DNA of 6,085 nt, taken from IMG/VR virus record IMGVR_UViG_2703719365_000003, one strand, 5' to 3'. Shown in pieces: positions 1 to 6,000 of this stretch. Position 1 is the stretch's first letter, and each line of letters starts with the position of its first letter. Source of the stretch: a virus. Its lineage: Duplodnaviria; Heunggongvirae; Uroviricota; Caudoviricetes. The position numbers were made by a program.

Positions 1-3000
1 CACGCTATACCGGAAGCACCTTTCGGCGAGGAGAAGCAACGATTAAGCCGGGCAATGGTGTTGAGCAGGTAACACACTGGATGCCGCTACCAGAACCGCC
101 GCAGGAGGTTAACCGTGGCTAACCTGCAACTTGCCGTCAAAGGTGAATACTTCGCAGATAGTTTCCCCCAAATCTGGGGAAAAGCCCGAATGGCGCGGCT
201 TACAGCAAGATAAGGCCTACATGATTTGACAAATCCGCCAGAGCTATCGCATACTGACCGCACTAGAACTTCAAAGCGGTCATCCGCACCCGATAGCTTT
301 GCGGCTTTTTTATGCCTGCAATTTGGCATAGTCACATCCGTACAAAGGTCGGGTGGAGAGGCGTAATACAATACCCGCAAGGGGAATATGCCCGGAGCAT
401 CTTTGAAGGCTCTAGTTGACACCCGATCACCAGCCACTAACTGGTGATTGCTAACTAAAACTTCAAAGGAGGTCATCATGACCAGTCAACTCATCCCCGT
501 ATTCAACGGCACTATCGACAACGAAACAATTCTTCTAGTTAACGCTCGTGATCTACACTCTTTTCTTGGTGTGGGCAGAATGTTCGCGCACTGGGTTAAA
601 GAACGCATTGCTGAATATGGATTCGTTGAAAGCCAGGACTATATTTTGATTTGCCAAAATGGGCAAACCAAAGGGCGAGGAGGTGATCGCCGTAGCAAGG
701 ACTACCACCTAACTCTCGACACAGCCAAAGAACTGGCGATGGTTGAGCGTAACGAAAAAGGCCGCCAGATCCGCCGATACTTCATCGAGTGCGAAAAGAA
801 ACTTCGCCAGAGCCTTTTACCTGCACCAATGAACATCAACTACCCTCTATCGTGGTTTTCAGAGCACCACCCCTACTCCATGATGAGCTATGTTGATCGA
901 AAAACTCTTAACCTGGACGTTTCTGTACTCTTCGACATGCCAAGCCCAACTATGCGCATCCTCAACGAGCTACACAGCAAGGGCTATAACGTCGATGCAG
1001 CTGTCGCCGAATTTAACGCCTTCAAGCATCTGACGGAAGAAATGCGCCGCACGCTACAGGATATTTCAAGACTGTCAGATCGAAATTCCCGAAAAGGCTT
1101 CTCGTTAAGTCTTTAAAGAACAGATCGTTTGACAATGCCGCATTAACGGGGATATATTCCGCCTCATGGTGCTGAACACACCACAGCAAGCGGAAACCGC
1201 CCCGTCAGTCATGCGGTTTTTTTGTGTCCATTTTTCAGATATGGTCGGGTAGCGCGTATACCGAAAAACAGCCGTAAGGCTAAGGATACGGGCCGACTTG
1301 CTGCGGTGTTCAAGTACCTGACCACCCTGCTGAACACAGGGTTATCTGAACAAATCAGCAAGGACATAAAAATGACTAGTCAACTCATCCCCGTATTCAA
1401 CGGTTCTATCTCAAACCAAGCAGCCCTTCTATGCAATGCTCGCAATCTACACGCTTTCCTTGGGGTTGGTAAACGCTTTGCATCGTGGATAACAGAACGT
1501 ATTGCTGAATATGGTTTCGTTGAAAATCAGGACTATATGATTGCTTCCCAAATTCGGGAAGCAAAAGGTAGAGGCGGTCACAACCGCAAGGACTACCACC
1601 TCACCCTGGACACAGCCAAAGAGCTTGCGATGGTTGAACGTAACGAAAAAGGTCGCCAGATCCGCCGCTACTTCATCGAGTGCGAGAAAAAGTTTCGCCA
1701 GAGCCTTTTACCTGCACCAATGAACATCAACTACCCTCTCTCGTGGTTCTCGGATAACCATCCCTACGCCACGATGAACTATGTTGATAGAAATACATTG
1801 CAGCTTGATACCTCCGTCTTATTCGACATGCCAAGCCCTGCAATGCGCATATTTAATGAATTACGTCGTAACGGCTATAACGTCGATGCGGCTGTCGCTG
1901 AATTTAACGCCTTCAAGCATCTGACGGAAGAAATGCGCCGCACGCTACAGGATATTTCAAGATTGTCAGATCGAAATTCCCGAAAAGGCTTCTCGTTAAG
2001 CCTGTAACTTCCCCTACCATCCCCGACATCCCGTCGGGGTTTTCATATCTGGAGACAAAAATTTGAAACAGATCGCTTTCTACAGGCGTTCTGGAAGGCC
2101 CGGTGCCTTCCGTGGGTTAAAAGAACGCGTCACCTGGATGATTCAGTCTCGTGGTCGTCCTGTTACTGGCAGTGAAATAGCAGAGAAATTTGGTGTTTCA
2201 CTTTGCGAGTTCAACAAGGTAGCTCGCGGCCTGACAAAGGGCAGTAAGGTTGTGAAAATAAAGGCTTCAGAACCATTCACCACAGACACCGGAATCGTTG
2301 ATCGCTTTTTCTCCCTCGAATCAAATCCTCGTCGTGACACACCTCGCTCACGCAATGCCGTTCCTCCATTCAGTCGCAGAAGCCGTGAACACGCAGCAAA
2401 AAACTGTCGCGAGGAATACGTGCAAAAGGCCGAACGCCGTCGCCGACTGATTAAAGCAGGACTTTACATTGATGAGTTTGAAAACGCGCTATGACGAAAA
2501 AATACACCCTCATTTACGCAGATCCCCCCTGGACATTCCGCGACAAAGCAACCGATGGTCAACGCGGTGCAAGTTTTAAATATCCGGTCATGAGTCTTCT
2601 GGATATCTGCCGCCTCCCGGTATGGGAACTGGCAGCCGATAATTGCCTGTTGGCTATGTGGTGGGTGCCTACACAACCACTTGAAGCATTGAAGGTTGTA
2701 GAAGCGTGGGGCTTTCGTATGGTGACGATGAAAGGATTAACCTGGAACAAATGCGGGAAAAGACAGACCGACAAGCTGGTCATGGGTATGGGTAGCACCA
2801 CTCGCGCTAACAGCGAAGACTGCCTTTTTGCAGTGAAAGGAAATCTGCCCGAACGCATTAACGCCGGAATAATCCAGTCATTCACTGCACCGCGCCTTGA
2901 TCACTCCCGCAAGCCGGATATGGCTCGAGAAAAGCTTGTGCAACTTCTTGGCGATGTTCCCCGGATAGAACTGTTCGCCCGCCACACCTCGCATGGATTT

Positions 3001-6000
3001 GATGTATGGGGTAACCAATGCGGCACACCATCCATTGAGATGGTTCCGGGTATTGTTAAATTTCTGGAGAAAACCAATGAGCGAAAAAACGACGTTGACA
3101 AAGGCATCACCAGTTGAATTAAGGCAGTGTCTGGAAATCGCAAATCAACTTGCCAGAAGTGGAATACGATTTGTTCCAATCCCGATTACAGCAGATGCAG
3201 AACTTCATCTGTTTGGTGAAATTCTTTCCCGAAAGCTGGATGAACTGGAAAAGCTGGTAGAAGAAGCTGACACCTCACTAACCGTATAACAGCCCCACCG
3301 ACATTAAAATATCAGGAGAAAAAAATGAACGCAGTGCTCACAGAATTGAACAAATTAGGAAAAGCATCAGCCGAAAGTATTTCTAAAGGTCTCAATATTG
3401 ATTTGAATGACGTTATTGACACTCTATGGAAGTTAAAAAACCAGGGGGTAGTAACTGTAAAAAATGGCATCTGGCAGGCAGTTGCAAGGGAAGTGGACAA
3501 AAAACCAAATATCGCCCCAGTGCAGCCAGTGCAGCCAGTGCAGCCAGTGCAGCCAGTGCAGCCAGTGCAGCCAGTGCAGCACAACATTATAGGTGACCTG
3601 CTACGTAAATCACGGAAAGAAGCGCGCCGCGCCGGGCGGAAACAGAAACGATGGGAGGGTGCATGTAAGGCGTTGCAAGAACTGAATAAATACCGTGACT
3701 TGATCAACGAATTGTCAGAGTGAGCGAATCACAGAGAGAATATTTTGAGAAACAACCCGCGTACATTAATATTGTTTTTCCTTTCTCTAATGACGGGCGG
3801 TATCCTGTTATTCGCAGGAACAACATTATTTATTTTTGTTGCCCGGCTAACTGCGAGGATAATGACATGAAAATCACATTTGAAAGTTACGGTTTAACAG
3901 CAAGTGTGGTTATCTCCAGCTCTATATTCGAAAGCCGCAAACATCAGCATATCGTTGATGCAGTGAAACTCAAAGCCCCGGAAGTTACCGTCACAACACA
4001 TGGACTTTTCAGGATACGAACGACGTTGACTACAACACACCTCTCGGCATGCCGTGTTTATGATATGGCACTCAAGGAATACAACCAGTGTTCGTCCTGA
4101 TCCAGCGCGGGCAGTCTTTCGTTGATGCCAACAACTATCCGGTAGAAATATGCAAGGTAACTCTGACTCAGGTGATCTACCGAAGGCTCGACGGCAGAAC
4201 CAGAGCCACTTCAATTGGTGCATTTAATGAAGAATTTGAGCGAATAGAGCACAACGAACTGCATATGATTAAAGCGGAAATTGAGAAGGAAAAGCATATT
4301 GCCAGCCTTCGAAAAATGCGCCGTACATCAATCAACTAACAACCGCCTTCGGGCGGTTTATTATGCTGTTGAAAAACATGTAGAAAAGGAGAGCATACTA
4401 TGGAAATCAACTTAATGACCGAAAAAGAAGTTTCTGAGTTGTTACAAAAAAGGCGCACAGCTTTGTATAATTTGCGAAAAAAACACGGATTCCCTGATCC
4501 AGTACTTACTCATCCGGCGCGATATAGCCGTCAGGCCGTTGAACAATGGCTTAAATCCGGAGGAATTAACCGAGCTGTTTAGCGTGCCAGAAAATTTTAT
4601 CAGCATACAACTCATACGCATCTTTCTGTTCCGACAACCAGTCGTGTTTATTATACACGGCCATCACTCCTCCCAGTTCATGCCCCAGCATTTTTTCAGT
4701 GACGTGGGGCATAATTCCTTCCCCAGATAAATTCGTTACCAGAGAACGCCTAAAATCATGCGTTCTCCATTCAGGAATATCAATTTTCGCCCTGAGTTTT
4801 TTCATGTACAAATTAGCAGACGAACGGTCAATAGGTTTATCTATTTCCTGCCCAGGGAACAGCACATCAAATCCGATATTAAGCAATCGTTCAATATAAG
4901 GCTCAACCTGAGTAAATATCGGACGCCGGATAATATTACCCATCTTTGAATGCTCTTTAGGGGTTGTCCAGACCAGATCTTCCATGTTGAACTCACTGGC
5001 TGTAGCGAGACGTAGCTCAGAAAGCCTGGCCCCCCATAGCAATAGCAATTGATGTAACAGCTTGTTGGAAGTAACCACTTTTGAGTTCTCCAGTGCCAGC
5101 CAGATCTTTGCCAGTTCCGTATAGGTAAGTACGCGACTCCCCACATCTGGTTTCTTCCCAATATTCTTTACACTAAGTTTGAGTAATTCGCATGATGGGA
5201 TTAACTGGCGGCTGATACACCAGTTAATAACTGAACGCAGTTGTAACAACAGAACACGAGCCTTTTTCTTGTTGAGGCTTTCTTGCTTGTCAAAAAAGCG
5301 AACCCAAGCCGATACAGGGATACCGGCAACTGGCGAGTCTTCAAACTGTGTGTACATAGTGTTGTACACAACAGATCTATAAAGCGTCTGAGTATTGGGT
5401 TTCAGGCCGCTAACATACTTATCCCACCACTGATCCAGGCATTCTTTTAATGTCAATTCGCCATCACTGGGGGCAAAATAATTTTTAGGGTTAACTCCCT
5501 TCATGTACAATGCGCGCATCTCACCGACGATAACACGTGCGTCCTTCAGTGAAGTGGACGGATAGCGCCCGACAGTAAGACGTACTGGCTTACCATTCCA
5601 GCGATAACGGTACTGAAACGTGATAGTTCCTGCTGGAGTAATCCGCACACTTAACCCGTCACCATCGGTGATTTCAGCAGGGCCAGAGTAGGGTTTTCCG
5701 TATAGGCCTCGTAGTTTGGTGTCACTCAGTGCCAATGCTTTATATCCTGTACACAAGGTTATAATGTATTCTGTACTCAATATGTACGCATTAGCAAGTG
5801 AACAAAACACTTTTCAACGCAAAAGAAGATAATCAACCATGAACAAAAACGAACTTACACCTTGATTTTAAAACCATAAAGACGGTATTATCAGTCATAT
5901 GGTGAACAACCAAAATCAATACGCAACAACGTCCTCTTAGTTAAATGGATATAACGAGCCCCTCCTAAGGGCTAATTGCAGGTTCGATTCCTGCAGGGGA

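Follow-up and report, generated by a model that had tools for sequence, protein, structure and literature searches.

The stretch of viral DNA analysed here, IMG/VR record IMGVR_UViG_2703719365_000003 (6,085 bp in all, hereafter the window), is the early-left arm of an Escherichia coli lambdoid prophage of the Shiga toxin (Stx) type, and it carries two overlapping genes, one for a basic protein of 143 residues and one for a 208-residue adenine methyltransferase of the MT-A70 family. Together they are the two-subunit Stx-phage methyltransferase already described, with the subunit names PNB-2 and M.EcoPA8orf6770P, by Gong, Chakraborty & Koudelka (Nucleic Acids Res 52:856, 2023; PMC10810198), and the pair is not new. 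As to what it does, we lean modestly towards the published account, that the holoenzyme methylates 16S ribosomal RNA (rRNA) and thereby raises prophage induction and virulence; we go no further than this because the identity of the module is certain and its physiological substrate is not. The first-pass annotation of this DNA, made from the sequence alone, had spoken of a poorly characterised module with an uncharacterised partner, a description overtaken by the 2023 paper and by a follow-up preprint (10.1101/2023.09.20.558713).

The pair is the published PA8 module

PNB-2 of the window is identical at all 143 positions to gp6 of the Stx2a phage PA8 (PNB-2; EcoPA8orf6775P), and the methyltransferase matches PA8 gp5 (M.EcoPA8orf6770P, also M.ECPA8_3172P) at 207 of 208, the sole change being M77L; over the stretch from terminator to stop, nine of 1110 nt differ from PA8. 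The two loci also share their layout, with a terminator, PNB-2 and an overlapping MT-A70 gene in that order in the early-left arm near int, the same terminator and ATGA overlap, and a DUF1382 gene downstream. They differ on the upstream side, where PA8 has one gene (gp7, PNB-1) with another N-terminal half and the window has two tandem AntA-family genes (Table 1). In an alignment the C-terminal half of the second AntA gene is the same as that of gp7, and the terminator that follows it has the same sequence as the one quoted downstream of gp7, a gene described as not co-expressed with the module (PMC10810198, here and below as far as its text was available). The module is also found, at 99% identity, in Stx phages and genomes of E. 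coli O104:H4.

What is known of the function of this module comes from that work. His-PNB-2 co-purifies the methyltransferase, deletion of the methyltransferase gene removes the pull-down band, and the two proteins cross-link 1:1. Alone, the methyltransferase is near background on RNA and on DNA, including dam- and dam-/dcm- DNA, and it is PNB-2 that confers substrate preference: the holoenzyme consumes more than 13.5-fold more S-adenosylmethionine (SAM) with total RNA than with DNA, it favours 16S over 23S rRNA, and also 30S, and RNA from phiPA8 lysogens is a poor substrate for it. Spontaneous induction and virulence both fall when IS629 is inserted in the gene, and complementation restores them only when the active site is intact (PMC10810198). 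The preprint adds that single and double deletions, delta-PNB-2 included, lower induction stepwise, and that nanopore signals shift near 16S positions 832, 1098, 1100, 1132 and 1190 (10.1101/2023.09.20.558713).

The complex, its preference for RNA over DNA and for 16S/30S, and the phenotypes of disruption and deletion have been shown by others on proteins nearly identical to those of the window; that the chemistry on rRNA would be N6-adenine methylation, and rRNA the main physiological target, is a further step that we take with more reserve. The suggestion in the first-pass annotation that the upstream protein might be a specificity or targeting subunit is borne out by the co-purification, the 1:1 cross-link and the PNB-2-dependent substrate preference. 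Its default view of the enzyme as a DNA adenine methylase active in anti-restriction or epigenetic regulation fares worse against a holoenzyme that prefers 16S rRNA to DNA by more than 13-fold (PMC10810198), although a DNA target is still a live rival, as discussed below.

In the published account as we would apply it to the window, the 208-residue protein would be a catalytic core with no target-recognition domain of its own, made from one transcript with PNB-2 by coupled translation. PNB-2 would bind it 1:1 and supply nucleic-acid recognition through a winged helix-turn-helix (HTH) core and an arginine-rich linker, the holoenzyme would methylate host 16S rRNA within the 30S subunit, and this methylation would in turn raise spontaneous prophage induction and Stx-dependent virulence. 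We suspect that PNB-2 contacts the enzyme through its invariant C-terminal RRxRLIxxGLYIDE helix; AlphaFold models of the complex failed, according to the PA8 authors (PMC10810198).

The catalytic subunit

The methyltransferase matches the Pfam MT-A70 profile over its full length (PF05063, E=2e-22; 80.4 bits against a cutoff of 23.9; profile positions 1-172 of 172) and falls in neither of the Dam families, PF02086 and PF05869. Its DPPW motif lies N-terminal to the SAM-binding motifs, the order of class beta enzymes, and the C-terminal HSRKP, RIELFAR and WGNQ align with their counterparts in Tetrahymena MTA1 (sQKP...lEiFARr for the first two); all three are invariant among five phage MT-A70 proteins. 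As the SAM-binding and catalytic motifs align to those of MTA1, they are present in the window enzyme. MTA1 is also its best solved relative (PDB 7f4r, E=1.3e-12), with METTL3 far weaker (E=2.8e-5), and NCBIfam has no match for this protein or for PNB-2. Class beta enzymes are active as homo- or heterodimers of methyltransferase folds (PMC7544214), and the ORF list and Pfam scan show no second MT-A70 gene among the open reading frames (ORFs) of the window. The first-pass annotation had the two ORFs, their coordinates and four-nucleotide overlap, and the DPPW-bearing MT-A70 domain right, and the SAM-binding motifs on which it had made its case depend are there. It was also right that no endonuclease partner is visible: none of the ten window ORFs scanned with Pfam (nine on the plus strand and the integrase) has an endonuclease domain, and RefSeq annotation of the 18 kb around the homologous locus shows no endonuclease adjacent to it. 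We therefore reject a type II restriction-modification (R-M) system, or a remnant of one, for which a cognate endonuclease gene would be expected beside the methylase.

The enzyme is more widely distributed than its partner. Among phage records, MT-A70 homologues occur in 517 and PNB-2 in 137, and the methyltransferase gene is present in 258 of 5,426 complete E. coli genomes, the whole module in only 132. In the nearest relatives of the enzyme outside Stx phages, TL-2011b (83% identity) and Hafnia yong1 (62%), the preceding gene encodes a PerC-like activator or a DUF4060 protein, not PNB-2. The preprint calls the enzyme unique to Stx phages (10.1101/2023.09.20.558713), which appears to hold only at high identity. 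O157:H7 strain TW14359 and a PNB-2-positive strain share one RefSeq accession for the methyltransferase; in TW14359 PNB-2 is replaced by an unannotated, unrelated 67-residue ORF of the phrog_8038 type (L116:3331-3534, corresponding to window 2051-2494). Of the PNB-2 gene this ORF retains the Shine-Dalgarno context in front (GGAGACAA), some 11 codons at the 3' end (LYIDEFENAL) and the overlapping ATGA, with the recombination joint at window position ~2461.

These loci also bear on the C-terminal tail of the enzyme, whose last 27 residues have been linked in print with PNB-2. That link is not supported, because TL-2011b has the xVxLxPG motif of the tail and TW14359 the tail in full, and both lack PNB-2. 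The last 41 nt of the MT-A70 gene are shared with the start of the DUF1382 gene, so that the last 13 methyltransferase codons are also read in the DUF1382 frame; in TL-2011b, where DUF1382 likewise follows the MT-A70 gene, the methyltransferase has a different tail and overlaps the next gene by only 4 nt. The tail may be a by-product of a recombination joint rather than a docking site for PNB-2. DUF1382 itself is simply the next gene of the operon, and nothing beyond position places it with the enzyme here.

PNB-2 and its probable coupling to the enzyme

PNB-2 is strongly basic (isoelectric point 10.75; 32 Lys and Arg against 16 Asp and Glu) and is laid out as an N-terminal FYRRxG segment, a winged-HTH-like core at about residues 19-85, a disordered arginine-rich linker at 88-103 and conserved C-terminal helices that end in LYIDEFENAL. 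Residues 1-25, ahead of the first internal methionine, are among the most conserved of the family in the homologue alignment, with Y7, R8, R9, G11, G14, F16, G18, E21, R22 and W25 invariant, for which reason we take the TTG start to be correct. The protein belongs to phrog_1680 (E=2.7e-79) and has the traits of that family: a stand-alone length of ~135-150 residues, FYRRxG, the HTH core and the C-terminal RRxRLIxxGLYIDE helix. The first-pass description of a basic, HTH-like partner stands as to charge and is less secure as to fold. The Pfam HTH_11 match of the window protein is below threshold (E=0.003), with matches at E<=0.1 in 16 of 21 homologues, and an AlphaFold2 model built from a 21-sequence alignment, of low confidence (mean predicted local distance difference test score 50, predicted template modelling score 0.30) and used for secondary structure only, has three helices and beta strands, a disordered basic stretch and C-terminal helices. 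Fold matches to such a model would be meaningless; a sequence search against the PDB found no similarity to any solved chain (best E=0.21).

The MT-A70 ATG has no usable Shine-Dalgarno sequence, the nearest GAG being 14 nt away, and this fits a scheme in which the enzyme is probably made by re-initiation after PNB-2, the two being coupled in translation. The CTATGA junction is kept across the family whatever gene comes next (window, RothD, HK639 and phi80 compared). Overlaps occur at three of the eight plus-strand junctions of the operon and, being common there, make the ATGA by itself weak evidence of partnership. A consensus promoter scan found no promoter between the terminator and PNB-2; for the PA8 module a stationary-phase promoter is mentioned (PMC10810198).

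Relatives of PNB-2 border a modification slot

The family is small, with 63 representatives at 50% clustering among 1.84 billion proteins. Phage records, GTDB genomes and IMG/VR yielded 105 loci, of which 64 are non-redundant and have enough downstream sequence to be scored. A DNA-modification gene lies downstream of PNB-2 in 60 of these and upstream in none; in 92 of 98 loci no more than 200 nt separate its start from the end of PNB-2. The occupants of this slot belong to at least seven unrelated families: MT-A70, D12 Dam (phi80 damL included), PF05869 Dam, C5 methylases (often fused to Dam), N6_N4, DndB and DpdA/TGT-like phrog_887, with the phrog_757 methylase as a further one. On its right edge is a conserved ORF of 72 or 73 residues; on its left, the gene upstream of PNB-2 varies between lambda-type Exo, a second Exo type, a Mu-Gam-like gene and, in Stx phages, AntA. 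In Stx phages both flanks differ and the PNB-2/methylase pair is still kept. From this gene order, the relatives of PNB-2 appear to be fixed companions of a DNA-modification cassette slot, an association of which we found no discussion in the preprint or in the available text of PMC10810198.

Whether the partner is conserved beside MT-A70 genes, the other test that the first-pass annotation had set itself, has a divided answer. A second lineage, the RothD-type prophages of Klebsiella, also has PNB-2 and MT-A70 genes that overlap directly (20 non-redundant combinations; PNB-2 53% and methyltransferase about 45% identical to the window proteins), so the pairing stands in the Stx and RothD lineages. 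Elsewhere the picture differs: other enzyme families follow close relatives of PNB-2, and the methyltransferase often occurs without it. Proteins of the HK639/phi80 type, at least 85% identical to one another, precede the varied enzyme families, usually with an overlapping ORF of 50-55 residues between PNB-2 and enzyme. Divergent members (36-42% identity or profile-only matches) have no recognisable adjacent methylase, as in Lastavirus, Erwinia phage 59, Pantoea AH07, a satellite-like element and others.

A profile search of the 1.84 billion representatives returned only stand-alone proteins of ~140 residues and no PNB-2/methylase fusion. The apparent fusions of our first search (P0024, P0048-P0052, P0058 and others) are chimeras produced by deletion or recombination, in which PNB-2 residues 1-60 or 1-125 remain. 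In P0024, P0027, P0032, P0048-P0052, P0058, P0059 and P0061 the PNB-2 N-terminus is in frame with unrelated sequence, the partners being the 72-residue right-flank ORF, DUF551, a DksA/TraR zinc finger and the MT-A70 C-terminus; these look like deletion scars, which suggests that the slot is often excised or rearranged. Two remote contexts may be recorded here. In L110, a Lastavirus-like Logan contig (SRR31967926), a divergent PNB-2 homologue (4001-4414) sits among small early genes that include Tad2-like and Acb2/Tad1-hairpin anti-defence proteins, with no methylase nearby. In L123, another Logan contig (ERR4405662), a remote PNB-2-like protein of 156 residues (3001-3471) lies between AlpA and Toprim/DUF927 primase genes beside an integrase, a context that resembles a satellite or phage-inducible chromosomal island and is unrelated to methylation.

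RNA or DNA?

Several observations weigh against an rRNA-directed holoenzyme with PNB-2 as its dedicated subunit. The assignment to rRNA consists of SAM consumption and nanopore signal, and the authors themselves state that the modified nucleotide was not identified chemically (PMC10810198). The DNA control for the holoenzyme was dam+ DNA only, from MG1655::phiPA2 (PMC10810198); such DNA is already methylated at GATC, and the control could not have revealed a GATC activity. M.EcoGV of E. coli O104:H4 C227-11 methylates GATC in vivo without PNB-2 (Fang et al. 2012, as cited in PMC10810198 and PMC6602927). To these can be added that the closest solved relative by sequence is a DNA enzyme, MTA1, that about half of the E. 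coli genomes with the methyltransferase gene lack PNB-2, and that PNB-2 proteins sharing 85% identity or more stand before unrelated enzymes, which is hard to reconcile with a dedicated MT-A70 subunit.

The M.EcoGV report, the dam+ control and the slot analysis together keep alive the possibility, which we consider real but on the unlikely side, that the methyltransferase is primarily a Dam-like phage DNA adenine methylase acting at GATC in the early-left modification slot, with PNB-2 as the left-edge gene of that slot. It would protect or mark replicating phage DNA, in anti-restriction or in keeping up with Dam-dependent processes, and the binding of PNB-2 and the activity on rRNA would be secondary or confined to the test tube. 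Dam and other methylases do fill the same slot, REBASE lists relatives of the enzyme as GATC enzymes, and the excess of MT-A70 over PNB-2 in phage records points the same way. M.EcoGV is called highly similar by the PA8 authors, and its equivalence to the window enzyme rests on that statement and not on a sequence comparison; it differs in having been assayed alone, overexpressed and without PNB-2, and was scored as a GATC DNA methylase (PMC10810198). Overexpression may give off-target methylation, as the same authors caution, and the equivalence by position is circumstantial. Against a DNA methylase stand the inactivity of the purified methyltransferase on dam- or dam-/dcm- DNA and the preference of the holoenzyme for RNA (PMC10810198), as well as the phenotype of deleting PNB-2 alone (10.1101/2023.09.20.558713). 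The poor performance of phiPA8-lysogen RNA as a substrate implies that this RNA is already methylated in vivo, which also counts against it.

A related idea, which we think rather doubtful, reads the slot as the primary fact: PNB-2 would be no dedicated rRNA-targeting subunit, and phrog_1680 proteins would be translationally coupled slot companions in enterobacterial lambdoid prophages, a single PNB-2 subtype serving at least seven unrelated enzymes (the DpdA-like one being a transglycosylase) through their expression or through tethering to phage DNA; the Stx enzyme would target DNA with 16S rRNA methylation as a side activity. The competing readings are not mutually exclusive.

It seems improbable that PNB-2 is not a subunit at all and mainly regulates the modification gene that follows, by binding DNA or mRNA and acting on transcription or on coupled translation, in the manner of Mu Com or of R-M controller (C) proteins. 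A very basic protein with an HTH-like core, one subtype of which pairs with unrelated enzymes, would fit such a role, and the CTATGA and the conserved 3' end of the PNB-2 gene are kept before the 50-55-residue ORF, before MT-A70 and before a PF05869 Dam (L065). GenBank and NCBI label relatives 'regulator', although these labels are unreferenced annotation. In phage Mu, com overlaps the start of the modification gene mom, and Com binds nucleic acid and controls mom translation. Com is a zinc-finger protein unrelated to PNB-2, and com-mom would serve only as an analogy for a regulatory role. As a C protein in the strict sense PNB-2 was rejected, since it has no Xre/HTH_3-type match, only the weak HTH_11 one, and is 143 residues long. 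A promoter and terminator scan of the 55 nt upstream of PNB-2 gave the terminator only and no operator-like repeat was identified, no dedicated inverted-repeat or C-box search having been run. Against a regulator, the pull-down and cross-link indicate a physical complex, and PNB-2 shifts substrate preference among purified components, on which gene regulation has no bearing (PMC10810198).

That the adjacency is purely positional, PNB-2 bordering a recombination hot spot and having a function unrelated to methylation (for example with the recombination module that usually precedes it), is very improbable: the divergent members with no recognisable downstream methylase and the many chimeras, which make the PNB-2 gene a frequent deletion or recombination junction, would fit it, but PNB-2 stays at the slot while its upstream neighbour changes, the Stx pair persists with both flanks different, and there are the published physical interaction (PMC10810198) and the PNB-2 deletion phenotype.

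Comparison with other two-part methyltransferases

Among the slot relatives, phi80 (PHI80_36 and damL) and HK639 (gp37-gp36-gp35) have a PNB-2 homologue of 54-55% identity that sits at the corresponding place in the operon and shares the CTATGA junction; they differ in that the 50-55-residue ORF usually intervenes and the enzyme is often not MT-A70. METTL3-METTL14, the writer of m6A on mRNA, belongs to the same Pfam family as the window enzyme, and its catalytic subunit, with DPPW, likewise depends on a partner to bind substrate, but there the partner is an MT-A70 paralogue rather than a winged-HTH protein, and the sequence match is weaker. The RGG region of METTL14 provides METTL3's partner with an arginine-rich RNA-binding element. 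The ciliate complex MTA1c (MTA1-MTA9 with p1 and p2; PDB 7f4r, 7yi8) resembles the phage module in having a bare MT-A70 core that needs separate HTH-type nucleic-acid-binding subunits, but it depends in addition on MTA9, an MT-A70 paralogue that is catalytically dead; METTL3-METTL14 has a dead paralogue too, and the window has none. Its p1 and p2 are homeobox-like DNA-binding proteins and its substrate is ApT in double-stranded DNA, not RNA; class beta enzymes such as M.EcoGII and METTL3-14 act on DNA and RNA alike (PMC7544214).

Genomic setting

The window is 97% identical to O157:H7, O26 and O111 chromosomes, and at least 80% of it is covered in only 27 of the 5,426 genomes. On the plus strand the order is two AntA-family genes, the terminator, the 143-residue ORF, the MT-A70 gene, DUF1382, DUF1627, a small ORF, DUF4222 and an AlpA-like excisionase (Table 1). 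The tandem AntA paralogues are 82% identical, and between them, at 1129-1158, is a near-consensus sigma-70 site (TTGACA-18-TATATT, 11 of 12 matches); both annotated related loci, in strains 97-3250 and 95NR1, have a single AntA-family copy. Within the DUF1627 gene, at 3517-3580, a perfect 9-bp tandem repeat, CCAGTGCAG in 7.1 copies, encodes (PVQ)n. The annotated length of DUF1627 varies by strain, from 378 to 435 nt in the loci seen, which may reflect variation in repeat copy number. The excisionase and integrase genes converge, their 3' ends overlapping by 17 nt, and the prophage adjoins tRNA-Arg(CCT), the argW site in which some Stx2a phages also insert.

Table 1. Coordinates of features in the window, with examples of slot loci in other sequences
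Feature	Position	Strand	Remarks
AntA-family gene, first copy	478-1116	+	
AntA-family gene, second copy	1369-2007	+	Pfam AntA; terminator lies between gene and module
Rho-independent terminator	2021-2047	+	CCCCGAC-ATCCC-GTCGGGG + TTTT; between antA gene and module; terminator scan
Shine-Dalgarno GGAG	2051-2054	+	8 nt before PNB-2 TTG start; read from sequence
PNB-2 gene	2063-2494	+	TTG start, 143 aa; ORF list and sequence
ATGA stop/start overlap	2491-2494	+	...GCG CTA TGA / ATG ACG...
MT-A70 class beta N6-adenine methyltransferase, catalytic subunit, 208 aa	2491-3117	+	
Catalytic motif IV DPPW, residues 11-14	2521-2532	+	Aligned to MTA1 DPPW
C-terminal cofactor-binding region: HSRKP (138-142), RIELFAR (158-164), WGNQ (173-176)	2902-3018	+	
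DUF1382 gene	3077-3289	+	Pfam PF07131, E=4e-28; RefSeq annotation
AlpA-like excisionase gene	4400-4582	+	
Integrase gene	4566-5810	-	
tRNA-Arg(CCT)	5931-6005		Prophage integrated here
Slot loci, examples from L002-L105	L009:4581-5462, L007:1074-1625, L015:4575-6434, L017:4575-5699, L021:4575-5636, L014:4575-5327		

Implications

That the module modulates spontaneous induction of Stx prophages, and hence the virulence of Stx-producing E. coli, has already been established by others. If the published model is true, a phage-encoded writer of N6-methyladenosine on 16S rRNA that PNB-2 steers would be without precedent; comparative genomics, by contrast, puts both genes in the context of DNA modification. 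The choice between rRNA and DNA is a choice between Stx phages that reprogram host ribosomes epigenetically and Stx phages that carry one more Dam-like DNA methylase, and the answer bears in turn on whether proteins like PNB-2 act generally as accessories to the DNA-modification cassettes of phages.

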